62,699 bases of DNA, filler included, from Sphacelaria rigidula (GCA_964200075.2; 11 parts of 11 records of this genome joined end to end with filler, not necessarily neighbours in it); one strand, 5' to 3'; numbered from the whole stretch's first letter, positions 5,610 to 59,721 are shown. Numbers and translations are program-made. Notes: generated by a model not told the origin, from the sequence alone.

Positions 5610-5709
5610 NNNNNNNNNNNNNNNNNNNNNNNNNNNNNNNNNNNNNNNNNNNNTTAATTAATTAANNNNNNNNNNNNNNNNNNNNNNNNNNNNNNNNNNN
5701 NNNNNNNNN
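5610..5709. other. Artificial contig spacer (N-run, TTAATTAATTAA, N-run); repeats every 5,709 bp at 11319, 17028, 22737, 28446, 34155, 39864, 45573, 51282, 56991
   Basis: Ten identical 100-bp spacers with an all-frame stop linker; 11x5609 + 10x100 = 62699. Confidence 0.98.
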
Positions 5710-8347: not shown

Positions 8348-8575
8348 TGTGTGTGTGTGTGTGTGTGTGTGTGTAGTCGTCCCCTTTATTCTGAATGCCT
8401 GTCTACGGTACACCCCTTGGCGTATGTAGGCGCACCAGCCGGGTCACACAGGAGGAAGTCCAACACAGGACTTTTTTTTCCCCTTTTTCGTTCATTTTCA
8501 GTTCACCACCATCCTTCTGCGGTGGTTGCCTTTATCTTCCATCGCGCAAGCATCGCGAGAGGAGTTCAGGCCGTG
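8348..8575 (-). mobile_element. 3' part of tRNA-derived SINE with (CA)n tail
   Basis: GCCGGGTCACACAGGAGGAAG.TCAACACAGGA matches the SINE body; the (GT)n run at 8348-8374 is the tail. Confidence 0.75.
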
Positions 8576-9520: not shown

Positions 9521-9988
9521 AAATGTAGATAACAATCAAAGAATAAAAAGAAGCGATCTAGAGCTCAGCTATATGTTCTGAGTTCTAAAACAACTAATTA
9601 TGTACACAGATATGTACTTCTTTCTTTCGAGTTCTGAGTTCTGCAAAAGCTCACCTTTACCCCCGAACTCATGTAGCATAGCCATGCCACTTACTTTTGT
9701 GTCCGGAGTTCGGAGATCATTAATCTTGACCCCTTACCTCATAAGGCGGCCACGTCACTCGCTTTTGTGCTCTGAGTTCTGAGTTTTTTTGGATAGCTCG
9801 TCTTTACCCCTCAGTTTGTGTGACGCCACCCTTCCACATATACATCCACACACACACCCACACGCCTGGCGCGTGCACGACGATCATAGAGAGTTGCCTT
9901 GCATACGACACACGATACGATCGTCTACTATGGTATCCACCACGGACTCCAGCGGTGCTGCGGCACGTGTACCCCCCCCCCCCCCCCA

Positions 9989-10078
9989 TGCTCCGTCTCG
10001 AAAGGGATGCGTGGTAAATGGTCGAACGACTACGGCAAGCAACAAATGAGTACACCCTCCCCCCCTCCCCACCCCCTC
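9989..10078 (+). mobile_element. 5'-truncated LINE 3'-end copy flanked by C-runs (similar copies at 30274, 45673 rc, 58985, 59525)
   Basis: TGCTCCGTCTCGAAAGGGATGCGTGGT.AATGGTC..GACTA.GGCAAGCAACAAATGAGTAC matches the LINE terminus at 22634-22700. Confidence 0.85.
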
Positions 10079-10941: not shown

Positions 10942-12419
10942 GCATTGTATACTCGTATAATGCATATGTTTTCATATTACACCTGCGGCAGTATTGATAT
11001 ATGCGTATATACTCCGAGGCTTCTCACGCTACAGTACATGTACCAGCAGACGTGTCATGTGATCACGCGTTTTTTCTTACATGAATGACTAGTCAGGGGG
11101 CGTTCGGAGTGGACAACTTGCACTGCAAGGGGATATCAGGAAGCGTAGGAGTCTCAATGTACAGCGTGTCACTGGATGTGTGACGCGGTTCTCCTGTAGG
11201 GATAGAGATGGGGGAAACCGCTGATGACGAAGGGGTCATGACGGTGGTGGCACGCCGACAACAACGGAACAACATCAGACTTCACAGTGTGTCAAACCCG
11301 AAAGACAGCACGAAATCTNNNNNNNNNNNNNNNNNNNNNNNNNNNNNNNNNNNNNNNNNNNNTTAATTAATTAANNNNNNNNNNNNNNNNNNNNNNNNNN
11401 NNNNNNNNNNNNNNNNNNGTAAGCACACGCAAGTGATGGAGGTAAATAAAAGCACAGGTGGAACAAAAAAATGACTCACTTGAAACGAATGATCAAAAGC
11501 CACTCTCAATCGTATCATCTACTCCCAATTTCACGAAAACACTGTTTAGTGCAAGCCACATACTTCTGTACCCGCGGTCGAAAACCATATATGGTTTGCA
11601 CAGCTCATGTACCCGGAACAATAGACAAAGGTTCAGCAGGACTTCATGGGATGCAGTAACCTTTGAGTTGACGTTCGAAATATGTCAGCTATTGTGATTT
11701 GAGTAGTCCGATACTTGGATCATGTCTATTCATGTCCTTCTTTGTGGAGAGGGCGCGCCGGGGGGGGGGGGGGGGAAAGAAGGGGGGGGGGGGGGGGATA
11801 TTCGGGGCTTTGTTGCACGAAAATGCCACGCCATAATATCGTCGTTCAAAGCAGCAACTTTTGCTCGTAAGCACTAGGTAGCAATAAGACACAGTGTTTC
11901 ATACTCCTTGACACCGTGTTCACCCGAACAAGGCGCACCGCGAGCCTTGTAAGTCGTCTGACACAAGTAAATACCTGCGGGCCCCTGAATTTCGGGCAAG
12001 TTATCATCCCCCTGTTCGTAGGATTGCCTGTGGTGGTCAGTAAGATACACCTTGTCGGGATAAGGTACAATAGTCTAGTGATATACCTGTTTTGAGTTCC
12101 GGGTACTACGCAGGATGACTTTATATCGTGATGTTGGCGACTAGACATACGTGAGTGGTGCTTGTCACATCTTGAGACTTTGGCGCCTACTGAGCCCACT
12201 CCCTTTCCTTCCCTCTTCATCAACAAAGTTTTATGTACATTTCTACCTCATCTTGATCGGCAGTCAGTCGTGTCCATTGATCGACTATCGCAGTCGTGTC
12301 CATTGATCGACTATCTGAGTCGAGCCTGTGCCCCATCCTCTCACGGGATCACGAAGCTACAAACACTCAAACACTCTAGAGCCCCTACCCAACTTGGGAG
12401 CTTTGTGGCCAAGGGACCG

Positions 12420-16037: not shown

Positions 16038-17514
16038 AGCCTCATCCCCCCTATTTTCNNNNNNNNNNTTAACCTCCAGCCGAGTCGCTATCTCCCCCCC
16101 CCCCCCCCCCGGGTCCACAAACTAAAAACACTTAAACACCCCCCCCCCCCCCCCCCTCTTTCGTAGGATCACTTGTTCTTTCATTTGCTGCACTGTGCTG
16201 GAGATATATTTTGATAGTCGGGCGTTCGGCCACTACCCGCGATTTACACGACGAAGACCTTGTGCCGACATTCCAGGCCGTGATCCCTCGCAAAGTCAGC
16301 CGTGCACAGGCGGTGAAGGAAAATAACTGACTACGACCGGCTCGGCTAGCCGTCAACCCTGGTGACGCCCAGGATTCATCCGTACCCACGATCGCCGACC
16401 GACTACAAGACAGAAATGGAATGAATCGCCCGCTCTGAGGAAATCTACGCCAAACTTTGGCAAGGACACTTCACACGGTACCAATATCTTTTGTCAAGAG
16501 CAGGGGTGCCCCCGAAACAAAACCCGAGACCCTATGTATCCTTCCCCCCCCCCCTCCGGCGGTCGTAGGACATGTTTTTTTCACATGAAGAAACACTCAA
16601 TAAACAGCCATTTGGGGGCAACTTGGGTGAGGTAGCACCCATGATTATTGTCCCTATCTGCCACCACGAGATGCGACACACATTGGACGAAAATTGGCGG
16701 TGCAGATAGATACCTTTAGCTTGATTGAGCAAGCATTGCAGAGCATTGTGGTATCCGCGTGGTCTTGATCTAGTCCTGGAAGTGTGATGTGCAATGTCTT
16801 GCCGAAACTAAAAAATATTACTTGGCCTTGACTCCGAGGGTATGCAAAGAATTAAAGCTCCATTCATACAACAAATTATTTTCGATTTACTTTCGATTTG
16901 GAGCTTCTCTTTTTTTTCATGTTCGAGATTTAGTAACCCCCTTCCCCCCCACCTGACCGGCGAAAACCCGACGTGCTCCGTCCCGGCTTCGTAGGGATGC
17001 GAGGTCAATGGTCTGATGACTATGGCANNNNNNNNNNNNNNNNNNNNNNNNNNNNNNNNNNNNNNNNNNNNTTAATTAATTAANNNNNNNNNNNNNNNNN
17101 NNNNNNNNNNNNNNNNNNNNNNNNNNNCCCCCCCCCCCCCCGGCGCCCGCCGCCCAGAGGGGGCGGGTGCTTATTCTCCAACGCGAAGGGCAAAAAACAA
17201 AAAGCCCCCCCCCCCCCCCCCCCCCCCCCGGACATGGACATGGTATAACGAAGCTGACCATTTTGCCTTTGCAGTACTAGAACACAGGCCATATGTAGAC
17301 ATGACATGACGCAGCGAACCATTTTTCTTTACAGCACTAGTTAAAACACAGACACCCCGGTATGTCAAACCCACATGTAGGTTGGGTCCTGTAATGAGGT
17401 ACCCGGAAAACATTTCGACTTCCGTTGGGCGGTGGAACTCTGGCCAGACATTATTCTAAAATCCCCGAAATTAGGTGCACAGGCGTCACATGAAGGGAAG
17501 GGGTCGGTCGGATC

Positions 17515-17515
17515 G

Positions 17516-17576
<61 letters not shown>
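17515..17576. repeat. (GTT)n microsatellite
   Basis: About 20 GTT units. Confidence 0.95.
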
Positions 17577-18204
17577 CTTTACATTAAAAAACCGTTCCGA
17601 TATCTGCGCGGTACATTCGTACTGGGCATCTGATGCGGACGCCTTCCGTGGTCACAGGCCAGCAAAAACAAAATACAACAAAAATAAAAATAGACCCAGA
17701 TTAAAACTCGCAAAACGCGACAGAAGCAAAAACAGGGATAAATGATAGAACAAAAAGAAAGAGAATACATGTGGCTAACCTCAGAAGATCCGGTGATCAT
17801 GCATGACAAAAATGTCAAGACCCACTGCACTCATAAAACAAACACCTTGCCAATGACCGAGCACATGGCCGGTAAAAGAAGCACCAAGCGGTACGCACTA
17901 CAAATGTAGATATCTTGAGATCTTGAAGCATAGAAGCTAGAACAAATTGTGGGGGACTCGTTGGCCAAGCTTTCGGCAGTGAAGATCCACGCGGGAGCAT
18001 TCGAGGAGTAGCGATCCATGGTGAACCGTACATGGAAGAGAAGAGGAAGTACTGTACGGGATATTCTGATGTGTGAGTAAGATTTGTGTTATGCAAACTG
18101 TCCTTCAACCTTACACGGTGAAAATGATCTCCCTGGAGCGACGTAATCAGTGCAGAAGCGGGGGGAAAAGGTAAATAATACGAGCTTCGGACGCCTGGAT
18201 GGTT

Positions 18205-21200
18205 TACCATGCAGATTACCTGGCACAAACACGAGATACCTATGTCAAGGGTGTACTGAACTTGGCTTCAGGCGCTGAGCCCGTGTTTAGAGATATTATT
18301 TAGTGTCCGTGAGCCAGTAAAATAAGTAAAAGACACTAGACCCCCAACAAGTACTAGGCTTGGGATATCCCAGTACCTTCATTACGCCACACTTCACTAC
18401 AGTATTCAAATTACATGCGCTGGAGATACTCTCGAAAGAGCTCGAGCTCGAGAGAGACGGGAAGCAACAGTGGATGAAGAAACAAAGAGTGGACGGGCAA
18501 AGTACTGTTGTAGTAGTGCTGGGATTTGGAGTCCCTAGCGGTATGACGAGAAATAGAGGTCAAGAGGAAATGCGATGAAGTGGGACAACACGGTTTGGCT
18601 ACAGGGAAAGTAGAGAGGGAGAACACTTCTAAGGCACGCTGAAACAGAGACCGAGCAAGTAGTGGGTGAGGATAGAGACAAGAAAAGTATCGGCACGAGT
18701 TTAGAGGGTAGGATGGGGAGTATCTATAGCCATGGGAAATGCGAACCGGAATCGAAACCCTCGGGTAGATGGGGGTAAGGGACAGCGGGAGCAAGTAAAT
18801 GCCCTGACGGAGAAGGGGAGGGGAAATGGAGACCCAAAGCAAACGGAAAAGGACGAAATCAGAAGTGGAGAGAAAATTCAAGCAAAGGAGAATATAATTT
18901 AAAAAAAAAAAGGATGGAGAGAGAACAATACGCGACAGGAAAGTGGATGGTGATTCGAAAAGGAAGCTGAGGATAGGATCGTGGAGCGTGTGCGGATTCA
19001 CCACGGAAGAGCGCAAAATAATAGAGATAGACGAACAAGTGAGCACGCACGACCTAGATGTGGTGAGAATCCAAGAGCCAGGGGAGAAAGACGGGGCAGA
19101 AAATAGCATGCAAAATTGGAGAGCACGCATGGATAAGGAAAGGGAGGAGAGCGGCGAACGGAAGTGTTTTTTTGTACGAAAAAATTATATTCCCCCCGAG
19201 TCCAAGCGTACGGTAACGTATATTCAGAGAAACTTCGGAGAAATAGCAGCAGATGTACAAAAATATTCAAGGCAAGGATAAGTAATGCTAATACTAATAG
19301 GATATTTTAACGCAAGGATTAGAAAAGCAAGCTGACCGACTGATAACAGTGGGCAACACCAGGAAACGAAGAATACGAATGGGGTAGAGATGTTGGAGTT
19401 CCTTGAGAATAACGAGTCGAAGAGGTTGAGCAATACAGTAAAAACAAAACAGGTTCGCAATGGACTAGGCAATGCATACAAAAGACAGAAAGCGTGATTC
19501 TTGACCGTGTAGTGGTAGAATATGGAAGTAGTCGGAGATGAAAGTGCAAGAACGTGCAGCTGACGTGGGAACTACGGATTATTACCTAATTTGGACAGAC
19601 AGTCAACAGACGAGATATGTAAAGTATGAGCGAGGCAGGAAGCTATGTCAATGGAAAATAGATTAAGTATAATAGATATAAAAAAGATGGACAAAAATGC
19701 AGTAACACTTCCTGGGTTTGTTGGGTACAGCTGACACCGAAATATAAAGGGACCGGTCGGGAGTGAAGAGCGACTGGTCACAACCACAGGAAGTAAGGTC
19801 ACAGGGAACGAACTGATCGTGTACAACAGAGCAGTAAATTGGTGGGATGAGGAAATAAGAGGGGCCAACGCAAGATATGCACCGAGTAAAAAACTACAGT
19901 AGGGTGTACTCATAATCATGCATGCCGTAGTCATCAGACCATTGACCTCGTATCCCTACAAAGCCGGGACGGAGCACGCCGGGCAGGGAGGGAGGCGTAT
20001 GCTAAAGCGAGAAAAGAGGTGAAAAATAAAAATATGGTAGAGAGGGAAGATAAGGGAGTAGGAAAAGATGTACAAATAAAGACTTTGATGACGGGATGAA
20101 GCAAATGTGGGTAGGCCTGGGCAAGCAGGCAGCGAGAGGCTAGACAAGGGAATAGCCACCCTGTCGGCACAGAGCGGTAAAATGATCGACAGTGTGAGGG
20201 GGAAGAGAGAAGTACGACTAGAGCACTACCGAAAACTAGGAACACCAACAACTAACAAAAAGTTCAACGCAGAATTCGAAAAAGACACCAACGCGTGAGC
20301 AGAGGAAAATGTAGAGGCATAAAAACGGGAGGATAATGTGTGTTGTGTGTTGTCGTCCCATCCATTCTGGACGCCGGTCTACACCTTTCGGTATATGTGG
20401 GCGCATCAGCCGGGGTCACACACAGGAGGAAGGTCAACACAGGAGCTTTTTCTTTGATATTTGTTTCTAGTACCCCATTTTCCTTCTGCGGTGCTTGCCT
20501 TTATATTTTATCGCGAGAAGGGTTCAGCAGCCCCTTTCCCTCGTCGATCATTAAGCCGAATTTTGTGTACCCACGACATAGTCGCTCTCCCATATTGGCC
20601 CACAAGAATTGCAGACAGAGACAGAGACAGAGACAGACAGAGAGTTCACAAGAGAGGAAGAGAAGGAGTGTATGGCTAAAACCAAGAACAGAAACGCAGA
20701 AGGGGCAGACGAAATAGTGGATGAATTCACGAGAGACGGATGCGAGAGAGAGAGAGAGAAAATATTACCACGCCGGTGATGTTGAACAATTGGATCTGGA
20801 AAAACGAGTACACAGCCAAGAGGTGAAGAGAAGGGGGAGTAGGCAACCTCTACAAAAAAGAAAGCAAGGCTGCCCCAGGGCATTATAGAGGCATTATAGA
20901 GGGATAACGCTACTGAGCACGGTTGGGAAAACACTCTGCAAGATTCTGCCCGATAGAGTAGGAGCGATGCTGGAGAAGGAAGAAAAAACCGGCGAGGCGC
21001 AAGCAGGGTTTAGACCGAAGCGTAGCTGCATAGACTGTGTGTACGCATTGAGTAAGACTATTCAAGATTGCAAAGACGAGGGGTTAACAGCGTACTGTTT
21101 TTTTTTTTACGTACAGAAGGCCTATGACAGTATGGAGAAATGGGCTGTGGAAAAAGACGCGGGAAACTGGGATCAGAGGCAAGATGTGGAGAGAGAGTGG

Positions 21201-22712
21201 TGGAATACATGACAGAATATCGGAATATATATTTTTTTCGACAAGAGTGTACGTTTTCACCCTTTTTTAAAGGTATGTATTAATGGCACCATAACAATAG
21301 CAGCATAAGCAGCAAAGCAAGGAATTAAGGTGAGGAACGGCACGGTATCGGGAATGATGTTCGCGGATGATTTCGTGGGGATATCAGAAACACCAGATTC
21401 ATTGCAGAAACACCCGAAGGACTGCAGAAACAGATATAGAAGACGATACAATCAACTAGGAGACGGAGAGTGACAGCAAATGTAACTAAATTGCGGAGAT
21501 TAGGAGAAACCAATAGTGTTCGAATTGAAAGTGGCGAAAAGAGGAGTTTCTGATCGTAGACCAGTATACATACCTTGGCGTAGGGATGCACCCATAACCG
21601 AAGCAATGGGTACAGGTGGGCAGGGTGGACATGATCCCCAGAGACTTGCGCCTCGACTTTAGGATCAAGAGACGTATTATAATGAATGTGATTGCGCCCA
21701 AGCTAGAAAATGCAGGAGAAGCAAGAGAAGGGAACGCGGTGTTGAAGAAGCTGGAAACAGTACAGATGACAGTAGCTACGAAAATACTTCGGGTGCTCAA
21801 AAACGACGAGGATTCGAGTATTGAGAGCAGAATTAGAAACTTTCCCGGTTTAAGCGAATAGAAACGTGGTACAATCGAAATGAAATATATATATATATAT
21901 ATATGTATGATACAAGGAACATGTCAAGAAAGACTACCAGCCATAGTTGATGGCGCTGTATGGAAGAAATTAACGAACGGGCGGGCTGAAACAAGGTAAG
22001 ATAGCGCGGTCGAGAAAATGGAAGGACATAGCAGGAAACCAAGACGAAATAGTATCCATAAATGAATGTGGGGTGTACAAAACAAAAGTAAGAGACATTG
22101 TAGAAATAACGGGAATACAAGTAAGTGCTAAGACGGAAAGAGGACGAGGAAGAGCACCTGAAGATGTACGGGAGGTTGAGAGAAGGGATGAGGATGAAAA
22201 CATACCTACACGGCCCAATGAAATACGCGAAAAAGTTTGAAAGTGCGATTTCGGGTGGGGGACCTGGGCCTGCCGGGAAGAAGAAAGAGGCACACCACTA
22301 GTTAGGTGGAGGAGGAAGCAGGTGCACGAATTGCCTCTGTGGCAAAGTAATAGCGAGTGAACTTCATATAGTTAGGGAAAGTGGACTATATACAAGGAGG
22401 AACGGGACGTGTTAGAGGGGTAAATCTTGGAAGTAAAACGAAGGTGACATGAAATCACTTGGTACATCAGACAGCAGAGAGAAAACGCTCGCTGTACTAG
22501 AAGATATATGGTGGCCACACACGGCGAAACAGGAAGGAGGAAACGATATGCGAAATGTTTTTGTGTAATGTGTAGAATAAACGATATGAGCGCCCAAGTA
22601 AATGTTGGAGGTGCCTCTTTCACGAGTGGGAACGGTGCTCCGTCTCGAAAGGGATGCATGGTCAATGGTCAAATGACTAAGGCAAGCAGCAGATGAGTAC
22701 CCCCCCCCCCCC
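18205..22712 (+). mobile_element. Near full-length decayed non-LTR retrotransposon (APE endonuclease + RT) ending in poly(C)
   Basis: APE start LRIGSWSVCG..DVVRIQE (18943); RT motifs EAQAGFRPKRSCID..VQKAYDS (20967) and GMMFADDFVG (~21350); many stops and frameshifts; 3' end ATGAGTAC(C)n. 5' boundary approximate. Confidence 0.9.
20337..20590 (-). mobile_element. tRNA-SINE family 3' part nested inside the LINE
   Basis: Homologous to 34900-35274; CA-rich tail on the minus strand. Confidence 0.8.
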
Positions 22713-24427: not shown

Positions 24428-26011
24428 TCAAAGCTTCATACCATACTTTGCCTGCAAACGTGCTCGCACCTTTTTACTTAGTCCCAACTTACGCAGCTCA
24501 GATTTTACAAATTGCGGGGCTCCGTCCAAAATATTTTCCAGAGGCTCCCACGAGTTTTCATCTTTGCCAAATCCGACCCACTCCACTTGTACATAAAATC
24601 CGTCTCCTGCTTCGTCCTCAGATATACCGACAATAGCCGTCATCTCAAACTCGCCTTGAGCAAAAGCATACTGGAACACCTCCTTCACATCAGCCGTAAT
24701 CTTCAGCTCCTTGTCCGCATAAAATCGAAGGCGGGCAACATGCACATCCTGTACCTCGCCATTCACAATGTTCTGTACCCCATACACATGTTGTTGTTCC
24801 GCCGTCACAATCCGCCAAGGCCCCGTCCACGTACTCACAAGCTTCGTCGTAGTTCCGGAACGCCTCACCCTCGCCGCCAGCACGTAATCGCCCACCACAA
24901 AGTTAGGAAGCTTCCCCTTACTAGCCACACGTCTCTGTAGATCGCGGTTCTTGTCGGCACGCTGCGCCACCTTCTTGTGCAACTCTTGCTGAGCCTCAAC
25001 AATTGACGTCACCTGCCGTCTCAAAGCGTCTTCGTCAAGCACATCGACGCCCCATTCGCCCCCAGTTGACGATGCCAGAGTAGAGAAACTGGTGCGCGGT
25101 GCCCGGCCAAACAGAACATGGTATGGCGTGCTAGCATAACGCTCTCGGAGCGCAGCGTTCAATGCCCACTGCACTGCAGGTACCAAACTCACCCATTCGC
25201 GGACATCACGCATTTCCTCTTGCAACATTGCCTTCAAGGTACGAACAATCTCACGCATCATTCGCTCACAGGTACCATTAGACCATGGCGAGTTAGCCAC
25301 CGCGAATCGGCGATCCAGCTTCAGCGCTTTCTCAAGCGCTCGCATTACACGATTCTTGAAATGCGATGCCGTATCGCTGACCCATACCTCTGGCGACCCC
25401 AGTGTTTTGCACCATGTCAACAGATGCTTCACCGTCGTGGCCGCCGTACAAGACTCCGTGGGCTCCAACCACACGAAGTTGCACAAATCGTCCATCATGA
25501 TTAACATGTACTTGAACTCGCCTCCTTTGTCCAAGCCACTAGTTCCAAGGGGGCCACTCTCGCCAACGTAGAGAAAATCAAAATGAAGAACCTCCCCTGG
25601 GCGTGTACCATGCACCGTCTCCCCGAAGGGACGCAGGACCTTCTCCCCCGCCTTGGAATCCAAACAGTGCAGGCATTGCTTCACAAACTCAGTCACATGA
25701 GTCTCCATGCGGAACCAACAACAATACTCTTGTAAGTGCTGTAAAGTTGCCACAACTCCTCGGTGACCAGCCCCTTTCATGTGAGCGCATACCATCAAGC
25801 GTATTTGTAGTTCTCTCGCTTCCAGTGGGATCCACAGTATATCCCTTCCTGCAACATGCACGCGAAACAAACCCTCACCGTCTTTGAAGACACGCCCAAC
25901 AGCGGCAGTAAACGTCTCGGCCCCATCACCCACCTCGTAACCCCTCACGGGCTTGCTCTTGGGCTTCACGAACGGCCGCTTTCGACGGTAGCGTCTCATC
26001 AGGCTCTCCAT
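24428..26011 (-). CDS. Gypsy integrase (HHCC, DDE) with C-terminal chromodomain
   Basis: AHMKGAGHRG..CLHC zinc motif; LHFDF..WVSD..SNGTCER catalytic core; VQVEWVGFGKDENSWEPLENI chromodomain. The N-terminal residues of the ORF are out of frame with the upstream pol. Confidence 0.92.
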   Translation of the reverse strand: MESLMRRYRRKRPFVKPKSKPVRGYEVGDGAETFTAAVGRVFKDGEGLFRVHVAGRDILWIPLEARELQIRLMVCAHMKGAGHRGVVATLQHLQEYCCWFRMETHVTEFVKQCLHCLDSKAGEKVLRPFGETVHGTRPGEVLHFDFLYVGESGPLGTSGLDKGGEFKYMLIMMDDLCNFVWLEPTESCTAATTVKHLLTWCKTLGSPEVWVSDTASHFKNRVMRALEKALKLDRRFAVANSPWSNGTCERMMREIVRTLKAMLQEEMRDVREWVSLVPAVQWALNAALRERYASTPYHVLFGRAPRTSFSTLASSTGGEWGVDVLDEDALRRQVTSIVEAQQELHKKVAQRADKNRDLQRRVASKGKLPNFVVGDYVLAARVRRSGTTTKLVSTWTGPWRIVTAEQQHVYGVQNIVNGEVQDVHVARLRFYADKELKITADVKEVFQYAFAQGEFEMTAIVGISEDEAGDGFYVQVEWVGFGKDENSWEPLENILDGAPQFVKSELRKLGLSKKVRARLQAKYGMKL

Positions 26012-28285
26012 TTGAAAAAACAGCGATAGCTCTCACGGATACCGCTGGAACGTTCACCCACCGGGACAGTAGATCTTCCCAGCAGTTACGCTCCCCAGAA
26101 ATATGCCTGATTGAATAATCATACTGCCCGAGTACAATCTTCCATTGTTCAAGACGCTGGGCGGCAGTTTTCGCCAGTGTGGTCACACATGCTTCGGGAT
26201 CAAGAATATAAGCGAGATTACGATGGTCCGTAAATATGGTCACTCCTCCCCGCAAAAGGTACTCCAACCTACGAAACGTACTCACGATGGCATATCCTTC
26301 CCTGTCCACCGTAGCCCACCGCAACCGCGCTCCTCGAAACGTCCCACTAAGAAATCCCAGGGGCTCATGACTCATGTCCTCCACCGCTATATTACGGTCC
26401 AATTCAGCGCTCGGTACCTGGGTCACGAAACTACCCCAATGAAGATCCGACGCGTCTGGAAACATCATCACCTCATAGCCCTCCTTGGGATGTGACAGAG
26501 CAACAGCATGTGCCACCAAATCTTGCGCCGCTGTCCAAGCTTGCGCACGCTCAAACGTCCACGCCGCCTCCTTGATTGTCCTGTTTGAAGCAACCCGCTT
26601 TGTACGACGCACGGTGCCCACCATACGCTCCTCGAGCAAAAGACGAAGGGGCTCCACCACTTCAGCAAGGCGCGGAAGAGACATCCGCAGCCAATTCACC
26701 GCTTGCGAAAATTGCATCAACTCGCCCGCGGTTTGAGGACGCCTCATATTCGCCAAACCGCTCAGCCGCTCCCTGTCGTGAGCCACCTGCCCACCCGAGA
26801 GAACCTTTCCGCACCACGTAATTTGCGTATCATAAAACATACACTTGTGTGCAACCGCAAAAGACCACCATCCTCGAGGCGGCTTAAAACCGCATTCAGC
26901 GTGCACAGCAAGTCATCTTCATTTGCCCCTCACCACAAGATGTCATCTACCCACACCTTACATGGAAGTCCAGTCAATAGTTTCGTCATAATGCCCTGAT
27001 AATACCCCGTAGCGTTGAGTACTCCTTGAGGCACGCGCGTAGGCGTGAATAACCCGTCAGGGGTTGCAATAGTGAAGATTTCTTGGGCATCTGCCGCCAA
27101 CGGCATCTGCCAGTATCCCTGCAGCATGTCTAGCTTTCCAAAACAAACAGCCCCTAGCACATCCGCCATCTCCGCTTATTGGTTTGGCATCACAGTCGGC
27201 ACTTTCTCAATCTGCCTATTAACGGCACGATAATCACTCACCAGTCTGAAACCACCCTTTTTAGGCGCTGCAACAGCCGCGCTCGCCCATACTACCTGCA
27301 AACTGCGATACACGAGCCCGAGCGCCACCAACGTCGCCGTGCAACGTGCCAACCATGCCATCGTAACCGGAGAGTATGCCCGCGACCTAGCCTTAACCGC
27401 CGTAGCACCAGCTTTGAATGTCACCTTGAGAGTCTTGACACGAGCGGGCGGATCACCACGTAGCGCTCGCCGAAAAACATTCGCACGGCGGTTCACAAGC
27501 TCGCGAAGCTTGCCCACGCCGCTCTCGGACATGCCATTATTGGCAGCTGCTAGTACCGCCTCCTCCAGCGCAAACTTACGCTCAGCCAGCTCTTGTTCGG
27601 GGGCCATACTCATCTCCGGACCGCGTGACATCAACCGCTCGACTGAGGGATCCACGGGCTCCTCCCGATCACCTTGGTGCTGCAGAGCCTCAACCGCGAT
27701 GGTGATACGTCGACAAGCACGCACCGAAGTGTTTCTCGCCCGCGCACAGGCACCTAAACTTCTGTACATGTCGATGCCAAGCTACTCTAGCATACGGCTC
27801 CCCATGATAATGACATCATCGGTTCCCGGCATGACCGCATAGGAGCATGGGTCCAATACAACCGGACCCCAGCTGGTTTGCAAAGCGGTGCGAACAGGGC
27901 AAGTTTTCTGCTCCACGCGCTCAACATTGCCATTTGCCAATTTCACCAACTGTTCACCAGCCATCGGTCTCACCACTTTGACATCTGGAACCATGCCTTG
28001 CAATTTCGCCGCCGCACCCACTGACATGGTCGTATTTCCAGATGCTGAATCTAAAATAACCGTGACCAGACAAACACCCTTTGCCCCTGCACTCGGGACA
28101 GACAAGTCGGCAAGACACCATCTTTCCTTGTTATCTACTTGCAGACCCTCAGATTGAAAAGCTGACACCTCACCCGCTTTGAGCGATCTCCATGCTGGCA
28201 CCGCCTCTGATTTCGAACCCGGGAACGAGTGCGATGAGATGGTCTGCTGCACGCCACCAGTAGAAGCGACCGGTTCGCGTGGCAA
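25926..28285 (-). pseudogene. Gypsy pol: protease, RT, RNase H (frameshifted)
   Basis: VILDSASG (protease-like); GFRLVSDYRAVN, LDMLQGYWQ, PQGVLNA, VWVDD (RT); FPDASD..TDHRNL..DLLSR (RNase H). Split over four ORFs. Order PR-RT-RH-IN indicates Ty3/Gypsy. Confidence 0.92.

Positions 28286-29448: not shown

Positions 29449-29505
<57 letters not shown>
28602..29505 (+). mobile_element. 3' portion of a second copy of the poly(C)-ended LINE
   Basis: Collinear with 21820-22712; ..LLCNVWKKRN..NGAPSRKGCVVN; ends in AAATGAGTAC plus a C-run of about 55 nt. Confidence 0.88.
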
Positions 29506-29506
<1 letters not shown>

Positions 29507-30604
29507 CGGCCCGGCCCCGCCCCGAGGCCGGCCCCGGCACAAGACCAAAACACCNNNNNNNNNNACGTGTCCCCCCCCCCCCCCCCCTCCCCCCTCCGCC
29601 GCCGAACACATCACAGCGCTTCGTGCTTGGTGATTGATTGCGGTTCTGGTCCGGCGAAAGTGTGGCGTGCTCCGTCCCGACTTCGTAGGGATGCGAGGTC
29701 GATGGTTTATGAATACTGTACAATATGCAAGATTATGACTACACGCTCGCGCTTCAGAGAAATTTTGAGACAACTGGCAGAAAACCGTCATGGAAAGAGT
29801 ATGGGGGCGTTCATAACCAGCTGTATTAGATCTTTGTACTGTACAGTACACAGACACCTGACGAGGAGATGAACTATTCTCCCCCCCCCCCACCTCCCTT
29901 CCCTATAGGACGGGGCATAATCTCCCACGTGTCTTCAAAAATCAGCCACCTAACTGGTGTTTTTCAATTTACCACTACATCAGCCCAATCTTTCTGAGCC
30001 GCGGTCAGCCCGTACCGATCTCTCGGCAACAATGTACGATCCCCTACCCCGAGGTCAGAGATGTACTTTCAACACCCCCCTTCCACCCTTGCGCACAAGA
30101 TACGGGTCAAGCACGAGATAGAGGGTGCTGAAAAGAACCAGAATTCGAATGACGGACTTATGAGGGAGAAGGAGGGGTTAGTAATCCACCTCATGTTTAT
30201 GAGGGAAAGTGATGTGTGCCTTTGCGTAGAAGTAAATGTCAATGTCCCTCCCCCCCCCCCCCCCATGGTGAGCGACTAAGGCAAGCAACAAATGAGTACG
30301 CCCCCATGGTGAGCCTGATCCGGCGAAAACCCGGCGTTCTCCGTCCCGTCTTGGAAGGGATGCGAGGTCAATGTCTTTTACATGCAAGGCCATCAGTACC
30401 CCCGTCCCCCTCCCCGTCCCGTCAAATTTGTGCTCATGTATTAAATCAAATCGGGGTGTAGTGCGTGGACAAATATACCACCCCTTGAGTGAGCACTAGA
30501 ATTGTTATTATCCATCGAGTTGTTGCTTTCTTCTCGTTGTTTTTTACGCATTCTTCAGCTTCGACCACGCTGGGCGCGAAAGGAGTATTACAGGCGGCAC
30601 CCAA

Positions 30605-33881: not shown

Positions 33882-34154
33882 CACCCATGAGGCAGTGTAT
33901 AAGCCGTGGCTGTCTCTGGAAGTGGCGATACCAGATAACAAAGCAACTCATTGGAGGCTGTCATCCAAATGCAAAATAGCCAATAGGCTTCGGGCCGAAC
34001 AACCTTGACAAGATGCAGCTCACCCTTCATCCGGCTCGCCGAGTACACCACGGCGCTTCGCGCTTGGTGGTTGAGTGCGAGCCTGGTCCGGCAAAAATCC
34101 GGTGTGCTCCGTCCCGGCTTCGTAGGGATGCGACGTCAATGGTCATATGACTAT
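33882..34154 (+). mobile_element. ~300-nt LINE-partner element (type B), truncated by the contig end
   Basis: Collinear with 59221-59515 (rc); 3' part also at 16955-17027, 19902-19982 (rc), 29605-29705, 30310-30400 and 45513-45572. Confidence 0.8.
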
Positions 34155-34899: not shown

Positions 34900-35274
34900 C
34901 AGTAGTTGGCACAAGGTTGGTAACCTCGTAATCTTCTGGTGGTTGACTTGTGGGGTTCGATTCTCGGAGCGATCTGAGATTTTTTCTTACACCATGCTCA
35001 ACAGTGGAGAGCGAATATGTCGTGGGTACACGAACACAACTTCACAGTCGACGAGGGAAAGGGACTGCTGAACCCCTCTCGCGATAAAAAAATAAAGGCA
35101 AGCACCGGTGAAGGAAGTTGGGGTAGTAAAAACGAATAAAAAATAAAAAAGCTCCTGTGTTGATCTTCCTCCTGTCTGTGTGACCCCGACTGATGCGCCC
35201 ACATATCCCGAAAGGGGTAGACTGGCGTCCAGAACATATGGGACGACACCACACAACACCCACACACCGCACAC
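34900..35274 (+). mobile_element. tRNA-derived SINE, full length
   Basis: TGGCACAAGGTTGGTAA A-box, GGTTCGATTCTC B-box, conserved body and CA-rich tail. Confidence 0.85.
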
Positions 35275-44742: not shown

Positions 44743-46415
44743 GTGACGATGATGAGCAACGGTGTATTGGTGTCTGTGTGCCGAAACGAAAACTTCAATT
44801 CGGGGTAAGACAGGGGATCATTTTATTATCGTTAATGCCTGCTTTGTTGCCATGCTGACACGTGTCTGGTTTTTTCCCTCTGTTATAAGTATCGTTTTTG
44901 CACGACGTCGTGTAGACGCCAACAAGTACAAAGCCCATGAGTAGTTAATAAAGTTGGGGACCCCGTAGCGATGAACAACATTGAGGTATTTCGCAGCCGC
45001 TGGTCGATTGTGTGCCATTTGCAAAGGGTGCTTCATCCGGTGTGTAGATCATAAGCTGATCGTGAAATTGTTCGTCTCCATTTTGAACACGCCGCCATTT
45101 TGTATCAGCGGGTGGGAGAAGACCTGCACAATCACCTGGTGTTGACTATACTCTGGTTCTATAGTATACAGATACTCTGCGTTGGTTTTATACGGACGTA
45201 CAAGTTCAAAACGAGACAAGTCATGCTGAACCTGGAACGTAGTTCGCACAGATCACATTTTTTTTGCTGCACGCGACCGACTGACGAACGGCACGCCTGT
45301 TTCCAAGTGCTTGTCGGTGCTGATCACATGGTACGATTTGGCGTTCTGCGCCACGGTGTACCCTGTATGGCGTCGTCCTCAGTTCAAAAATGGGAATACA
45401 AAGTTCATGGGTGAGCCCGGCAAGCCTAGTGAATGGGCTGGTTCGGTGCGGCTAATCCCCCCCCCCCATCCCCTTACTATGGCATGCATGATCATGAGCA
45501 CACCCCCATCCCCTTCGCGCTTGGTGATTGAGTGCGAGCCTGGTCCGGCGAAAATCCGGCGTGCTCCGTCCCNNNNNNNNNNNNNNNNNNNNNNNNNNNN
45601 NNNNNNNNNNNNNNNNTTAATTAATTAANNNNNNNNNNNNNNNNNNNNNNNNNNNNNNNNNNNNNNNNNNNNCACGCATCCCTTTCGAGACGGAGCAGGG
45701 GGGGGGGGGGAGCGGTACCATCCCTATTGGGCGTGTGCGACAGAACTGAATGTTCTCCTTATGGTATAGTAATGTAGCAATACAACCGATCGATTGGTCG
45801 AAACCGTTCATTTTTTCTGTACAAGTTGCCGAACATGACCCATTTGGCGGTCGAGAGGGTGACTTTGACCATTCCTACAGCAACCATTCATACCCATCAA
45901 TAAAGGACACGGAAAAGAGTGTGAATATGTTCATTGATAGCTCGCTCTGACAAGTTGACCTGACTGATTATTGTTTGACAAATGCCGGTAAGAACTCTCA
46001 CAGGTGGTCCCTATGGTAATGTAGCAACATATTTGAACCGTACCTAGCAAAATTTGGAAGGCTATCATCATGCGCACCGCTGTTGTGAAGACCGATCCCT
46101 TCCCAATTGAGGGATTTTGCTGGTACTCGAAAAAAACAGCCTCAACGGCTAGCCTTGAGAAATGGATACCACGAGTATAAGTCATCCCTCACGTGCGTGT
46201 ACGTGGAATATGATGCGTCATCGAAAAAAACACGCCTCAAGATATACTGCTAACGGTGACATCATAAAACAGGCAAAAAAAAACTACTTTGCGGTTCATA
46301 TCAGCGTGTCATCCATTTCGGAGCACCTACTCTGGAACTCAGTAGCGTTGGCTTGAGAACGTTTCATCATGCAAATACTTCGGAACAGCAGTTCGCGCCC
46401 AAAGTTGTACAGTAC

Positions 46416-48684: not shown

Positions 48685-51281
48685 AAACCCACTTGTCCCT
48701 CGCTGGTTTTTTCGTCCTTTTCTAGCATCGTTCTTACTTCATCATTCAGGATCTTACAGAACGTTTTTGCTTCCGTGCTCGGTAGCGTCATTCCTCTAAA
48801 GTTTCCTGGGTCAGCCTTGTCTCCCTGCTGGGAAGATTGACGACTACTCCTTCTCTCCACCTCTTGCGTGTGTACTCGTTTTCCCATATCCAGTTATACA
48901 GCATAGCCATCACGGTAATCATTTAATCCCCCCCATGCTTCGATATTTCTTTCACTATTCCGTCTGTCCCTACTGCCTTTTTGTTCTTGAGTCTAGCTAC
49001 GCACTCCTTTACTGTATCTCTCGTGTATTAACTCTGCAATGCTTTCGAGCCACTATCCTCCCATTTTGACGTCTCTACATTTGCCTCTGCCCGCTCGTTG
49101 ATCTCTTTCTCGAATTTCGTGTCGAATTTCGTGTTAGGTTTTGATGTTCCTAGTTTACGGTAATGCTCGACTAGCACTTCTCTCTTCCCCTTCGAACTGC
49201 TCACCATTTCACCATTGTGTGCCCGTAGTGTGCCTATCCCGTTGTCTATGTTCCTTGCCTGGTTTTTCGCGATCCCTTTTTTCCCTGCCCACATTTGTTT
49301 CATCCCGCCATCGAAATCTTCACTTTTTTTCTTCACCAAGTCTCCTCATACTTCCTCCTTTTTCTGCTGTACCATATTTTTTACTTCCTTTCGAGCTCTA
49401 GTATACTCCTCCCATCCTACCGTACTTTTGCTCGACCTCCATCTCATGTGGGCCTCTCTCCTTACTCCGATAGCCTCTTCTACTTCCTCACCCCACTAGT
49501 TTACTGCTGTGTTGCATACTATCAATTTTTCCCCCATGACTTTACTTGCTATGTTCTTGATCAGCTGCTCCTATCATTCTACAATCTTCGCTCCTGCCCG
49601 ATTTCTTTCCATTTCGGTATCAACTGTACCTACGCGTTCCCATAACTCGGAAACCTTCACTGCATTCTTGGCCATCTCTTCTTGAAACTCTCGCTGTTTC
49701 TTTTCCATATCTAGTTTATCGATTCTCCATTTGTACAACTTCCTACCTCGTGTATTTCTTTCGTCTCTCGTCTGTCGGCTTTCTGCCCATATTAGGCAAT
49801 GATCTGTGGTTTCCACGTCCTCCGCGCATACATGTACTGCCGTTCCTTCACTATTTCCATGCTCCACCGCTATAAAGTGAAGAACGGAATCTCCTCTCTT
49901 TTTCCGACTGCATTCCCTCGTCCATGTCCATTGCACCCCTGGCTTTTTTACTCTATCGTTCAGCGTCTTTATCTCGTTATGCTCAAAGGAACTTGGGCAT
50001 TTCTACCATATTCGTGTTATCATCATCTCCCCCGTATTGCCCAATGATTTCATCCGGTTGATCTGCTCTTCCTACCCTTGCATTCAAATCTCTCGATGAC
50101 ATTACTTATCCTTGCCTTTGATACTTACGTGCGTCTGCTGCTATCTCTCCGAACCTACGCTGAATATCGTCCACCCTACTCTTCGATTCTGGGGGCATAT
50201 AGATGTTCCCGACGAAGTCCTTCGTTACCTGCTCTCCTGGTACCCCTGTTCATATGCTCTCGTCGAATTTCGTGTCATCGATCACTTCAATAATGTCACA
50301 CAGGTATTCCTTGACTAAAAACCTTACTCCCCCCGCTCCCCTGCTCTTGGCCTTCTGTCCCTTCCGCTTCTTTTTTCCTATCCATGCGTACTTTTGAACT
50401 TTGCAACCTTTTCCCAACCCGCTCCTTCTCCCATGACTCTTGAATCCCTACTATCTCTAGGTCGTGCTTCCTTACTTGTTCGACTATCTCTGTTCTTTTG
50501 CTCTCGTCTGTGGCGAAGCCACATACGCTCCACAATCCTATTCTTGACTTCCTTTTCGAATCATTGGCTGCTCTCTTGTTGTCTTCTATCCTCTTCCCGT
50601 GTCTCTTACTTCTACTTTACCTCGCTTGATTGTTGTGCCCCTTGCCGGTTTGGACTTTGTCTATTTGCTTCAGGGCGTTGTGTCTCCTCTCCTTCCCCTT
50701 CCGGCCATTTACCTGTTCCTGCATCTCTTTCCCTCCGTTTACCCGTGCACCACGTCTTGGGTTTGTTATTCCGTTAGCAACGCATACTCTCTATCCTACC
50801 CTTCTAACTCATGCCGATAGCTCGCTTGTCCTTTCCCATTCCTTGCTCGCTCTTTGTTTCACTGTGACTCGGAAATGTTCTGCCTACCTTTCTACTTCTC
50901 CCCTTGCCAAACAAAATAATCCAACCTCATCGCATGTCCTTTTAAACTCTATTCTTGTCATGTCGCTACGGACTCCGAATACCAGCACTACTAGTACCTT
51001 ACCCGACCACTCTTTACTCCTCTATCCGCCCTTCCTTGTCCCCTCTATCTCGATCTCCTCCGAGAGAATCTCCAGCTTGTTCGTTTTATTCGTCGTGGTA
51101 AGATATCTTCGACGTACTGGGACATCCCAATCCTAGTACTCGTCGAGGGTCTGGTTCCTTTTAGTTATTTTGCTGGCTCGCCGACACTAAATAATGCCTC
51201 CAACATGGGCTCGTAGCCTGAAGCCAAGTTCAACACCTTCGATACAAGTACCTCACGTTTGTGCCAGGCGATCTTCATGGT
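48685..51281 (-). mobile_element. Third LINE copy (5' region, APE, start of RT)
   Basis: WSVCGFATD..DLEIVGIQESWEK; TTDHCLIW; GDKADPGNFRGMTL..EGQVGF; collinear with 18205-21010. Confidence 0.9.
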
Positions 51282-53484
51282 NNNNNNNNNNNNNNNNNNN
51301 NNNNNNNNNNNNNNNNNNNNNNNNNTTAATTAATTAANNNNNNNNNNNNNNNNNNNNNNNNNNNNNNNNNNNNNNNNNNNNATTTAGGGCTCGTGTAAAC
51401 ATAACGGACTTTACTTATGGGACAGAGGAAGTATTGACTGAAAAAAAAAACGCGAGAGAAAATACGCAGCACAGTAGAAGTCACGGCATCCGCTTCACAT
51501 TTTCATGAGCTTTCGTGCGACTCCTGTTCATAAGAGTAGTTCGTTTGACTTTCGCATGATGCTGTGCTGCTGTCGTCCCCAGACTCTCTTCCGACGAACT
51601 ACCGGTCTTATCAAAGCCGTTTTCTTGGTGCATTTGATGTCAGCGACTCTTTTTTTTGCGATTCGGTGTTACATGTACGAATTCAGGTTTTCTGCAACGA
51701 AGATACCACAACATTTACCATTAGGGATGATAGAGAAAAGTGACCGTAACGTTCATAAGGGTATACGTTGGTGTCTTGAGAACAACGTCGAGCACATACG
51801 TACAGTCTCTCGGTGCGTGCATGCACACTCTGCACCGAATTTCGCCATCCGATTGGCTAGCACAGCACGGGTATTATCGACAATATCGGCGGAAAACGCA
51901 GGTAAACCTGGACGTGCGTTTTTGCCCGCGGCCAAAACACCAGCGCCCTGGACATTTCTTGAAGATGGTGAACATGTTGACGGTACGCACACTACCTAGA
52001 TGGCGGAAAGCCGCGAACAAAAACCGGCTACGATGGTCGTACCTGGAGGGTACACAGGCAATATTCCATTCTGTGTAGCATCTGACATTGAGTGCCCTTC
52101 TCACGATTTTTTCGAGTTCGGCTGCTTTTCATTGGCATTCGGGCCATCTGTGAAAATGTTCTGCATTCAAATTCGAACGCGATCCTGATTCCAACCGATA
52201 TGGACTGTGTGCGAGTCGGCCGGGCGCATATCTGCCCGAGACCGTAACGGCACAGCTTGAATTTCACGTCGGCTAATTTTGCATTTTGCATTTTAGGACG
52301 ACCCGAGACTACTCAAAAATAGCGCCAACACAGCCAGGCGCAAGCTAAAACGGGCCTTTATGCTGCACCACTGCGCACACAGGAGTACGGCACAGCAGGA
52401 GGCAACCCCATGCACGAGACATGATCGCATGATCGACGTCGATCATGTATGCCGAGATATGTGAGTACCTGATTATATGGGTTTCACTGCTCACACGACA
52501 CTTTTTATGCACAACATGTTACTTTTGCGTAGGGAGAGGGACAGAAACAAGACAAGAGACCCGGGTACCCAGGCACAGAGTTCCGCTGCGATGACGGCGC
52601 CCATCACCCCCCCCCCCCCCCCAAGCAACATCTGGACGGAACTCTTTTTCAAATGACAGAACAATGAGCTGCACGGCCGACCCAGATTGCGAAGAGAATG
52701 ACGCGGAGAGAGGTCGTTACAATGGGCTCTTCACCGACGGCAACCGCCTCATCGAAAGATCAGGGTTCTACGCACATCGCACGCGGACGGAGGGGGGGGG
52801 GGGGGGTGCAGCATAGACGCCCAATGCAGCCAGTCAGGCTGCTGATGTAGTTGGGCCACCCTCGAGGTAGTCCCCCTGTGTTGGTGATACGGGCGCTGAG
52901 TGTCTACCGCACAGCGCATACTGCCTTGTGAACGTCTGTTGACAAGATCATGCCGGTGCAGCACCGTCGAACAGCATGTGCAGTCAGTACTATTATACAA
53001 TTGAAACATGTACCACACGGTCACCACGTGAGGTGAGCCGGACGGTGGAGGAGAAAACCAGCACGTCCAGCAGGGTGACACGTCCAGCTCAGTACACGGT
53101 ACAGAATGTATGAGACGGGATCATGCTTTTGGGATTTTTCATCTCCGAGTCAGAGCTGGATTACGTTCCCAACAAGCGAAGATAAAACATACACAATAAC
53201 GTCGGCAAAGTTCTTGTTACTACGTGTGTGACAAAAGTCGGCAAAGACATACAGACGGTGCACCGTACCTGTTAGTTCGGCGGTCTGCAGCCCGCACATG
53301 AAAACGACGGAGCGAAAATTAGGGGGGAAACATGAAAACATGCGACGAGGTCGAGTTCTGTAATACTCGCTGTACTGTACTGTTGTAGTACACATCACTT
53401 TACTCTACTCTTTCGTAAATGTACTGTATACATCGTGAGAACGAGGAAAGCCTTCCTTCCGCATGATCGGTTCACTTCACGAAC

Positions 53485-58509: not shown

Positions 58510-58877
58510 CCGGTCGCCCCCTGGCTAAATTGGTAACCTCGAATGCTTCTCTGACGGTTGGGTCGTGGGTTCGAATCTCGGTGAAGTCACTCGATCTGGG
58601 ATGTTTCTCACGCCATGCCCAACAGTGGAGAACGACAATGTCGTGGGTACATAAAATTGGAGTTCACGGTCGACAAGGGAAAGGAACCGCTGAACCCCTC
58701 TTGCGAAAAAAGTGAAGGCAAGCCCCGCAAAATGAAGGTGGAATACTCAAGAGGAAGATAAAATTGAAAAACTCCCGTGTTGGCCTCCTTCGTGTGTCAC
58801 CCCGGCTGATACACCCATGTACACCGAAAGGTGTAGACTAGCGTCCAGGACAGATGGGATGACAACACACAACACAG
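58510..58877 (+). mobile_element. tRNA-derived SINE, full length
   Basis: TGGCTAAATTGGTAA A-box, GGTTCGAATCTC B-box, 3' hairpin TACACC-GAAA-GGTGTA and a CA-rich tail. Confidence 0.88.
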
Positions 58878-59220
58878 ACGGACAACGAAAACCTGCTACG
58901 AACTTGCTGTCTACTCAAAGCCAATGTTCAGAGCGGCTCCTTTGTTCGCCAAATGATTTGACTAATGACTCCTCCCCCCTCTTCGCAAGGGATGCGTGGT
59001 CAATGATCAAACGAGTAAGGCAAGCAACGAATGATTACGCCTTCCCCCCCCCCCCCCCCCCCCCCCCCCCCACGCCCCCCCCCCCACCCCCCCCCGCTCA
59101 CACTCNNNNNNNNNNCTCCCCCTCCGCCCAAAGGAGGTGCGGGCAATGAAAAAACACAAAAGGACAAGAACCAAAGGTTCTCCCCTCCCCCCCCCCCCCC
59201 CCCCTCCCCTCCTTGGAAAA

Positions 59221-59515
59221 TGTACTCATGATCATGCATGCCATAGTCATTTGACCATTGACCTCGTACCCCTACGAAGCCGGGATGGAGCACGCCGGGT
59301 TTTCACCGGACCAGGCTCGCCCTCAATCACCAAGAGCGAAGCGACGTGCTGTGTTGAGCGAGTCGAATGAAGGGTGACGTGCATCCCGCTAAGATTGTTC
59401 GGCCCGAAGCCTATTGATTATCTTGCATTTGGATGACAGCTGACAATGAGTTGCTTTTTTTTTGGTGTCACCACTTTCTGAGACAGCCACGGCTAATGCA
59501 CTGCCTCATGGGTGC
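59221..59515 (-). mobile_element. Complete type-B LINE-partner element
   Basis: Reverse complement runs from CACCCATGAGGCAGTG to GCATGATCATGAGTACA, collinear with 33882-34154. Confidence 0.82.
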
Positions 59516-59721
59516 CTCAGCATGAAGGGGATGCGTGGTCAATGGTCGAACGACTAAGGCAAGCAACAAATGAGTACGCCCCCCCCTCCCTCCTTCCCCC
59601 CCGTAGCGTGGAATAGCTTCAATCTCAACCGTGGTTCTATCCCTGACGATTCCTAGAATCTTGATGCCGCTGCGGTCCTTACTTGGTCGATATGCTGTAT
59701 ATCGGGACCCGACGGACACAG

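Follow-up and report, generated by a model that had tools for sequence, protein, structure and literature searches.

Introduction

Among described systems the element reported here is closest in kind to the RTE-X families of the brown alga Ectocarpus. In the available part of the curated table of transposable elements of the Ectocarpus v5 assembly (PMC12477816 supplementary file 1), RTEX-1a_Ec32 (5867 bp) is entered with a 'single EN-RT ORF; (C)n 3'' and RTEX-2_Ec32 (5582 bp) with '(C)n termini/TSD', and the TSD of both is given as 'C-rich'. The same part of the table lists two non-autonomous families: RTEX-N1 (607 bp), whose 3' 60 bp are common to RTEX-1/2 and which 'can be present in tandem', and RTEX-N2 (188 bp), which has its 3' end in common with RTEX. 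RTEX-N1_Ec32 and RTEX-N2_Ec32 are described as possible SINEs (PMC12477816). According to the main text of that study, RTE-X is the most abundant LINE group in Ectocarpus and RTEX-N1 the most abundant family; the term 'C-rich' has no occurrence in the available portion of that text. Within the first part of the table RTE-X is the only LINE group recorded with (C)n, and RTE-1_Ec32, RTE-2_Ec32 and CRE-1_Ec32 are given microsatellite 3' ends, (CAA)n and (CA)n (PMC12477816 supplementary file 1). Repbase recognises RTEX as a clade of the RTE group (PMC5753468, PMC11203168); the sections of these two papers that treat RTEX consist of clade lists and phylogeny and hold nothing on 3' ends. Among the accessible portions of the literature on RTEX, on RTE-X in brown algae and on poly-C together with LINE terms, we found no paper analysing the C-end feature or its mechanism. 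The poly-C mentions in PMC5381506, in the sections available, refer to internal L1 3' UTR tracts.

Here we analyse a stretch of 62,699 bases from Sphacelaria rigidula, referred to below as the window. It is made of 11 contigs, each exactly 5609 bp long, chained by N44-TTAATTAATTAA-N44 spacers (for example at 5610-5709 and 11319-11418), and holds five N10 gaps elsewhere. The pieces are separate contigs, so adjoining pieces in the window are not neighbours in the genome, and the two LINE copies named in a first-pass annotation of this DNA lie on different contigs (contig 4, 17128-22736; contig 6, 28546-34154), since the window is not one locus. That annotation, made from the sequence, proposed a LINE family that ends in poly(C) and knew of no described family of this kind. 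The latter point does not stand, as RTEX-1_Ec32, RTEX-2_Ec32, RTEX-N1 and RTEX-N2 are already so recorded in the available part of the Ectocarpus table (PMC12477816). The kind of element is thus on record in Ectocarpus, and the window adds no new kind.

Results

LINE copies and coding capacity

The copies and their parts are collected in Table 1. The first-pass annotation had treated the element as a LINE with an APE, and the domain matches bear this out. Read through its 22 stops, the contig-4 copy matches RVT_1 with 34.5 bits against a Pfam cut-off of 29.6, and an open piece of 107 aa at 20889-21209 matches RVT_1 by itself (E 1.9e-6). The APE endonuclease was not detected in the window copy by Pfam alone; the segment 18937-19095 aligns to residues 44-97 of the Ectocarpus protein P0022 with 61% identity over 54 aa (E 2e-15), and in P0022 itself Exo_endo_phos is recognised by Pfam (residues 57-138). 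The 31 codons that precede the stop at 22694-22696 are 74% identical to the C-terminus of P0002, the best database match. What had been taken for a conserved 3' tail is coding sequence for this C-terminal peptide (...NGAPSRKGCVVNGQMTKASNK), related forms of which are present in Ectocarpus and in many further relatives. Given the position of the TGA stop, only GTAC lies between the ORF and the C-run. The reverse transcriptase, APE and C-terminal matches are all on the plus strand; the element therefore lies on this strand, and the C-run is its 3' end. A placement of the LINE on the minus strand of contig 4, where the longest open frames are found, was rejected, as those frames have no family matches and all three matches above are on the other strand. 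Stop-free antisense frames, again with no family match, reach 257 codons in contig 4 (e.g. 18411-19184) and 430 codons in an intact copy of the element (L123 1851-3143, minus strand); they are probably a composition effect.

The intact copy, L125, came from a search of prokaryote genome contigs for P0002, in which one contig, placed in a bacterial bin, encodes that protein at 98% identity. Its 5259 bases hold one 1382-codon frame, stop to stop, that covers both the APE and the reverse transcriptase domain, with Exo_endo_phos at residues 193-415 (E 8e-11; Exo_endo_phos_2, E 1.4e-7) and RVT_1 at residues 763-1012 (111 bits, E 7e-32). The best solved-structure matches of the reverse transcriptase domain are L1 ORF2p (E 2e-21) and R2 proteins. 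L125 ends ...AAATGAGTAC-G-C13, that is TGA-GTAC-G-C13, followed by 94 bases of other sequence, and contig 4 is 71-73% identical to it from 17334 to 22712. No other match to the LINE tail was found in the bacterial bin, so the L125 contig is a stray there; this public bin of a bacterial metagenome is contaminated by the LINE contig (L123 / L125), which is eukaryotic and 5.3 kb long. A metagenome scan with a degenerate tail pattern returned 122 stretches, all of them chance hits with no similarity beyond the pattern, which was too loose. On the reverse strand of L125, the 5' untranslated part (bases 1-140) opens with about two tandem units of ~65 bases; in contig 4 the sequence from 17230, right after the C25 run, is similar to this unit by eye.

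Comparison with L125 by blastn shows contigs 6 and 9 to hold further partial copies. The nearest named relatives of the LINE are Ectocarpus proteins, with P0077 reaching 68% identity over the reverse transcriptase; the matched proteins carry no TE family label. The family thus presents a LINE-type reverse transcriptase, an N-terminal APE-type endonuclease and 5'-truncated copies with TSDs (five truncated copies of 27-66 bases in the window), and it has no terminal repeats, in that no self-matches were found within contig 4. Nested in the contig-4 copy at 20334-20639 is another dispersed repeat, a few hundred bases long, which is also present at 35006-35262, 8360-8546 and 58530-58876.

Table 1. 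LINE copies, their parts and related insertions in the window, in order of position
Feature	Position	Strand	Basis or remark
66-base 5'-truncated LINE copy; C16 upstream (9972-9987), 25-base C-rich tract downstream	9988..10053	+	
F3 copy with no C-run after it	12013-12373		
F3 copy, ending ...AAACACTCAAACAT then C30 (contig 3)	15567..16007	+	
F3 28-base copy between C17 and C18	16111-16138		
C25 run, directly upstream of presumed 5' end of contig-4 LINE copy	17205..17229	+	L125 homology starts 17334
Near-full-length LINE copy, old, degraded, with many stops and two nested insertions	17334..22699	+	71-73% identical to L125 (blastn); three-frame translation
APE endonuclease domain, N-terminal part (KLRIGSWSVCGF...DVVRIQE)	18937..19095	+	alignment to P0022
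Nested 3' fragment of non-autonomous sister family F2 inside contig-4 LINE	19901..19983	-	
Reverse transcriptase domain	20886..21440	+	RVT_1, residues 18-202 of read-through P0001
Last 31 ORF codons (NVGGASFTSGNGAPSRKGCMVNGQMTKASSR) and stop TGA at 22694-22696	22601..22696	+	match to P0002 C-terminus; frame 2
GTAC then C-run (13 C incl. C of GTAC), element 3' terminus	22697..22712	+	
Second LINE copy, 3' 850 bp (contig 6)	28603..29449	+	76% identity to L125 over 872 bases; 75.5% to contig 4
C56 run after ...ATGAGTA, then GC-rich sequence, N10 gap, C17 run	29450..29505	+	
27-base 5'-truncated LINE copy, exact 14-bp TSD CCCCCATGGTGAGC	30274..30300	+	TSD at 30260-30273 and 30301-30314
F2 copy cut by contig end; in other genomic copies C-run and AAATGGTGAGA before this point	33882..34154	+	
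27-base 3' fragment of F2, exact 13-bp TSD CCCCCATCCCCTT	45476..45502	+	TSD at 45463-45475 and 45503-45515
Start of truncated LINE copy cut by contig end; C13 (45698-45710) ahead on own strand	45673..45697	-	
Third LINE copy, 5' UTR through mid-RT, broken off at 48692	48692..51281	-	74% identity to L125 over 2618 bases
56-base truncated LINE copy, then GCCTT, C28, C11, C9 up to N10 gap	58983..59038	+	
F2 copy, ~290 bases seen; then ATTTTCC..., then G-run, not C	59222..59514	-	
54-base truncated LINE copy, then 25-base C-rich tract; no C-run upstream	59524..59577	+	

The 3' end and its C-run

Both LINE copies with an intact 3' end run into C, as had been noted in the first pass. The segment 22634-22712 reads ...GGCAAGCAGCAGATGAGTAC and then 13 C at 22700-22712 (a count that takes in the last C of GTAC), and in the second copy ...ATGAGTAC gives way to 56 C at 29450-29505, a length read in the window, as runs of more than 31 bases are beyond sizing by k=31 contigs. 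The three short 3'-end copies that had been reported to adjoin C-rich tracts were all recovered with these tracts, and we found two more, at 30274-30299 and, cut by a contig end, on the minus strand at 45673-45697. With at most 3 mismatches the 20-mer GGCAAGCAACAAATGAGTAC occurs six times, always on the plus strand (ends at 10053, 22700, 29450, 30299, 59038 and 59577), against a mean of 0.00 in 100 shuffles.

A looser motif search that took in the LINE family and the sister family F2 gave nine 3' ends in the window. In six of the nine the following 12 bases include 8 C or more, as compared to 1.1% of all window positions (binomial p ~1.5e-10). One of the other three has C5 and then the TSD, and two are without a C-run (59222, minus strand, ATTTTCC...; 19906, minus strand, ACCCTAC...). 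Two more F2 ends, seen by eye and outside the count of nine, lie at 30400, with a C-rich flank, and at ~29745, with none. No A-run follows the element at any of the nine ends. The base between GTAC and the C-run varies among copies (none, G or A), and so does the length of the run, from 5 to 56. RNAalifold predicted no pairs in the nine 3' tails, a weak test given that the F1/F2 alignment is poor upstream of the conserved core. These observations confirm that the poly(C)-ending 3' terminus of the LINE family is real.

Junctions in contigs of sequencing runs

Contigs (k=31) of four sequencing runs from two studies were placed on contig 6. The public runs in which contig 2 is found bear one organism label and 'algae metagenome'. 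Beyond ...ATGAGTACGCCCCC (place 30305) the consensus is 15-25 C, with 447-690 contigs in each run reading on from there; as this place lies after GCCCCC, the contigs counted had been pre-selected for five C. A C-run at the 3' end is thereby seen genome-wide, within that selection. Ahead of the F2 start (place 33882), loose ends in 576-688 contigs per run carry a C-rich stretch and then AAATGGTGAGA; the C-run before AAATGGTGAGA is clear in three runs, and the consensus of the fourth differs. Joints from 30305 to 29382, 30273 or 33882, which lead into the start of another truncated copy or of F2, are present in 4-55 contigs per run. The arrangement of copies indicated by these joints is head-to-tail. 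Many run contigs stop at the C15 run (30250-30264), and one contig of run X2 spans 29677-30299, this run included, with 0 differences.

Several truncated copies, such as those at 9988 and 45697 (minus strand), share a start base (TGCTCCGTCTCG...), and the tail of the previous copy is joined directly to the start point 29382 in 12-34 contigs per run. The unit of ~66 bases that starts TGCTCCGTCTCG may be a discrete mini-element rather than the product of random truncation.

Targets and TSDs

Two insertions have exact TSDs, of 13 bp (CCCCCATCCCCTT) and 14 bp (CCCCCATGGTGAGC), and both TSDs start with C5 inside longer C-runs (11 and 15 C): the upstream copy of CCCCCATCCCCTT is the end of the C11 run, and that of CCCCCATGGTGAGC the end of the C15 run at 30250-30264. 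The suggestion that the family targets C/G tracts gains support from these two cases. Both landed beside an older F2 copy, in the C-rich sequence that flanks it on the upstream side. The remaining copies allowed no exact TSD to be defined, and none was found at 59524-59577. The C-runs at 9972, 30250, 45457 and 45710 each end immediately upstream of a 5'-truncated copy.

Where the TSD is exact, the target accounts for the whole of the downstream C5, and these two cases show no C tail on the RNA. At 59524-59577 the C-rich bases, 25 in number, are all on the downstream side of the copy, and runs of 28 and 56 C are longer than the TSDs; these point to a tail or to slippage. We read the data as showing both features, a C-rich target and a C-run that would be carried or generated at the element end. 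A nick in the G-rich strand, with priming by a C-rich RNA end, would be consistent with the geometry of the TSDs.

Sister families

F2 aligns to the LINE over the last ~75 bases only. Its flanks are C-rich in the window and in the run contigs, with exceptions at the ends already given (59222 and 19906, both minus strand, and ~29745). A search of the F2 5' part against Rfam gave nothing at gathering score, and one sub-threshold lncRNA match was taken as chance. The 3' end of the third family, F3 (...AAACACTCAAACA), differs from the LINE/F2 end, and C30 and C18 follow in two of its three copies.

Homopolymer runs and assembly breaks

The window contains 31 C/G runs of at least 10 bases, as compared to 12 A/T runs, and many of the C/G runs have no recognised element end beside them. 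The first-pass observation that contigs break at C/G runs was reproduced: 12/32 contig or gap edges are within 100 bp of a C/G run of at least 10 bases, against 7.4% of positions (the two sides of one gap are not independent), and three of the five N10 gaps touch C-runs.

Two other coding regions were seen in the window. Contig 5 carries, at 24428-26912 (minus strand), the pol of a Ty3/Gypsy-type LTR retrotransposon, which encodes RNase H, the zinc-binding and core domains of the integrase and, at its C-terminus, a chromodomain. In contig 10 an open frame of 402 codons (53395-54603, minus strand) contains sigma-70 regions 1.2 and 2; it may be a nuclear gene that encodes a sigma factor of the plastid, or the contig may be a bacterial contaminant.

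Discussion

The element is very probably a non-LTR retrotransposon of a brown alga or close relative, of the same kind as RTEX-1/2_Ec32, with a C-run at its 3' end and priming in C tracts. One long ORF, ending 4 bases short of the element end, encodes an endonuclease of apurinic type, a reverse transcriptase and a Cys/His motif. We propose that within a C:G tract the endonuclease would nick the strand that carries the G. About five G, freed by the nick, could then pair with the C-rich 3' end of the element RNA and prime reverse transcription, with slippage of the register giving runs of variable length. Each insertion would leave a new C-run open to further hits, from which tandem and nested copies could arise, and the many C:G homopolymers produced by insertions may be where short-read assemblies break.

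The alternatives differ in where they place the origin of the run. If the target supplied every C, the RNA would end in ...GTAC(N) and all downstream C would be a pre-existing tract duplicated as TSD, with no poly(C) tail of the element's own. We consider this unlikely. The five C that belong to the duplicated target in both exact-TSD cases and the C-runs directly upstream of truncated copies are what it predicts, but it does not account for the C-rich bases on one side only of the copy at 59524-59577, for runs of 28-56 C after the element where TSDs measure 13-14 bp, or for the 15-25 C of the genome-wide consensus after the tail; for the Ectocarpus curators, too, '(C)n 3'' is part of the consensus in the table as available (PMC12477816). 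The run might instead be untemplated, a by-product of initiation in which the reverse transcriptase or a host enzyme adds or slips G/C at the nick. Run lengths from 5 to 56 between copies and the variable base after GTAC would fit such a process and nothing direct speaks against it, the data being equally compatible with a templated tail subject to slippage, but the exact-TSD cases need no added bases, and we regard it as improbable.

Two further readings would make the association spurious. That the homopolymers stem from no-signal G calls on Illumina instruments or from assembler behaviour at contig ends is suggested by the edges and gaps that lie near or touch such runs (12/32 and 3/5) and by the many contigs that stop at C15. 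Runs are nevertheless found inside contigs with unique sequence on both sides, the X2 contig crosses C15 without a difference, L125 carries the tail, C13 and 94 further bases in an unrelated assembly, the runs are found at one particular end of the element and on its own strand, and (C)n ends are reported by curators of the Ectocarpus v5 assembly in the available part of their table (PMC12477816). An artefact is accordingly very improbable, and this reading is largely refuted. Chance adjacency in a genome full of C tracts can hardly be credited at all: the excess of C/G over A/T runs (31 against 12), many of them away from recognised element ends, lends it some basis, but it is refuted at the level of the window by the six of nine ends against 1.1% of positions (p ~1.5e-10), and hundreds of independent contigs show the junction.

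The retrotransposon with C-tract priming that we favour resembles RTEX-1/2_Ec32, as described in the available part of the table, in its single EN-RT ORF, (C)n 3' end, C-rich TSDs and length of ~5.5-5.9 kb, as well as in its abundant non-autonomous partners with a common 3' end and its tandem occurrence. Of the features of brown-algal RTE-X, the single EN-RT ORF is present in L125, the (C)n 3' end in the family, and the C-rich TSD in two exact cases; the 60-100 shared 3' bases of the partners have their counterpart in the ~75 bases of F2. The host alga differs, identity to the best Ectocarpus protein is 68% over the reverse transcriptase, and the families are likened by description and protein match. 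Membership of the RTE-X clade thus has indirect support, from shared features and matches to Ectocarpus proteins. F2 recalls RTEX-N1/N2_Ec32, so far as these are described in the table, in sharing only its last ~75 bases with the LINE and in its C-rich flanks, whereas in F3 another sequence precedes the C-run. RTE-1_Ec32, RTE-2_Ec32 and CRE-1_Ec32 belong to the same algal group and, on the table entries available, likewise have a short repeat and no poly(A) at the 3' end; here the repeat unit is a single base and the TSD is of the same base.

Mammalian L1 elements carry a poly(A) tail, insert at a nick at TTTT/AA and have TSDs that start with A. By analogy, the algal TSD opens with the homopolymer base of the tail, and the primer strand could pair with the RNA end. 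In both, 5' truncation is frequent, and the algal reverse transcriptase domain can be aligned to L1 ORF2p structures (E 2e-21). The algal LINE differs in having C and not A, one ORF and not two, and a 3' UTR of 4 bases as compared to hundreds. The hallmarks of the L1 type, a poly(A) tail and two ORFs, are absent from the material studied, with no A-run at the nine ends and one ORF in L125.

We hold evenly balanced the wider proposal that the endonuclease of brown-algal RTE-X evolved a true preference for C:G homopolymers together with a templated C tail, a GC mirror of the poly(A)/TTTT arrangement of L1 by which the family would have seeded its own targets. In the available parts of PMC12477816, the tail and the C-rich TSDs are in print as table notes only. 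To these the window adds a second host, an intact copy, an ORF whose stop lies 4 bases ahead of the terminus and two clean TSDs that begin with C. LINEs that end in poly(C) are unusual among described non-LTR elements, and they offer a natural test of how far the pairing of primer and tail sets target choice in target-primed reverse transcription. For short-read assemblies of brown algae they mark places of breakage, with 12/32 edges near a C/G run here. If the proposal is true, the RTE-X family makes landing sites for itself and returns to them, forms tandem arrays, and would account for much of the excess of C:G homopolymers and of the places where short-read assemblies break.
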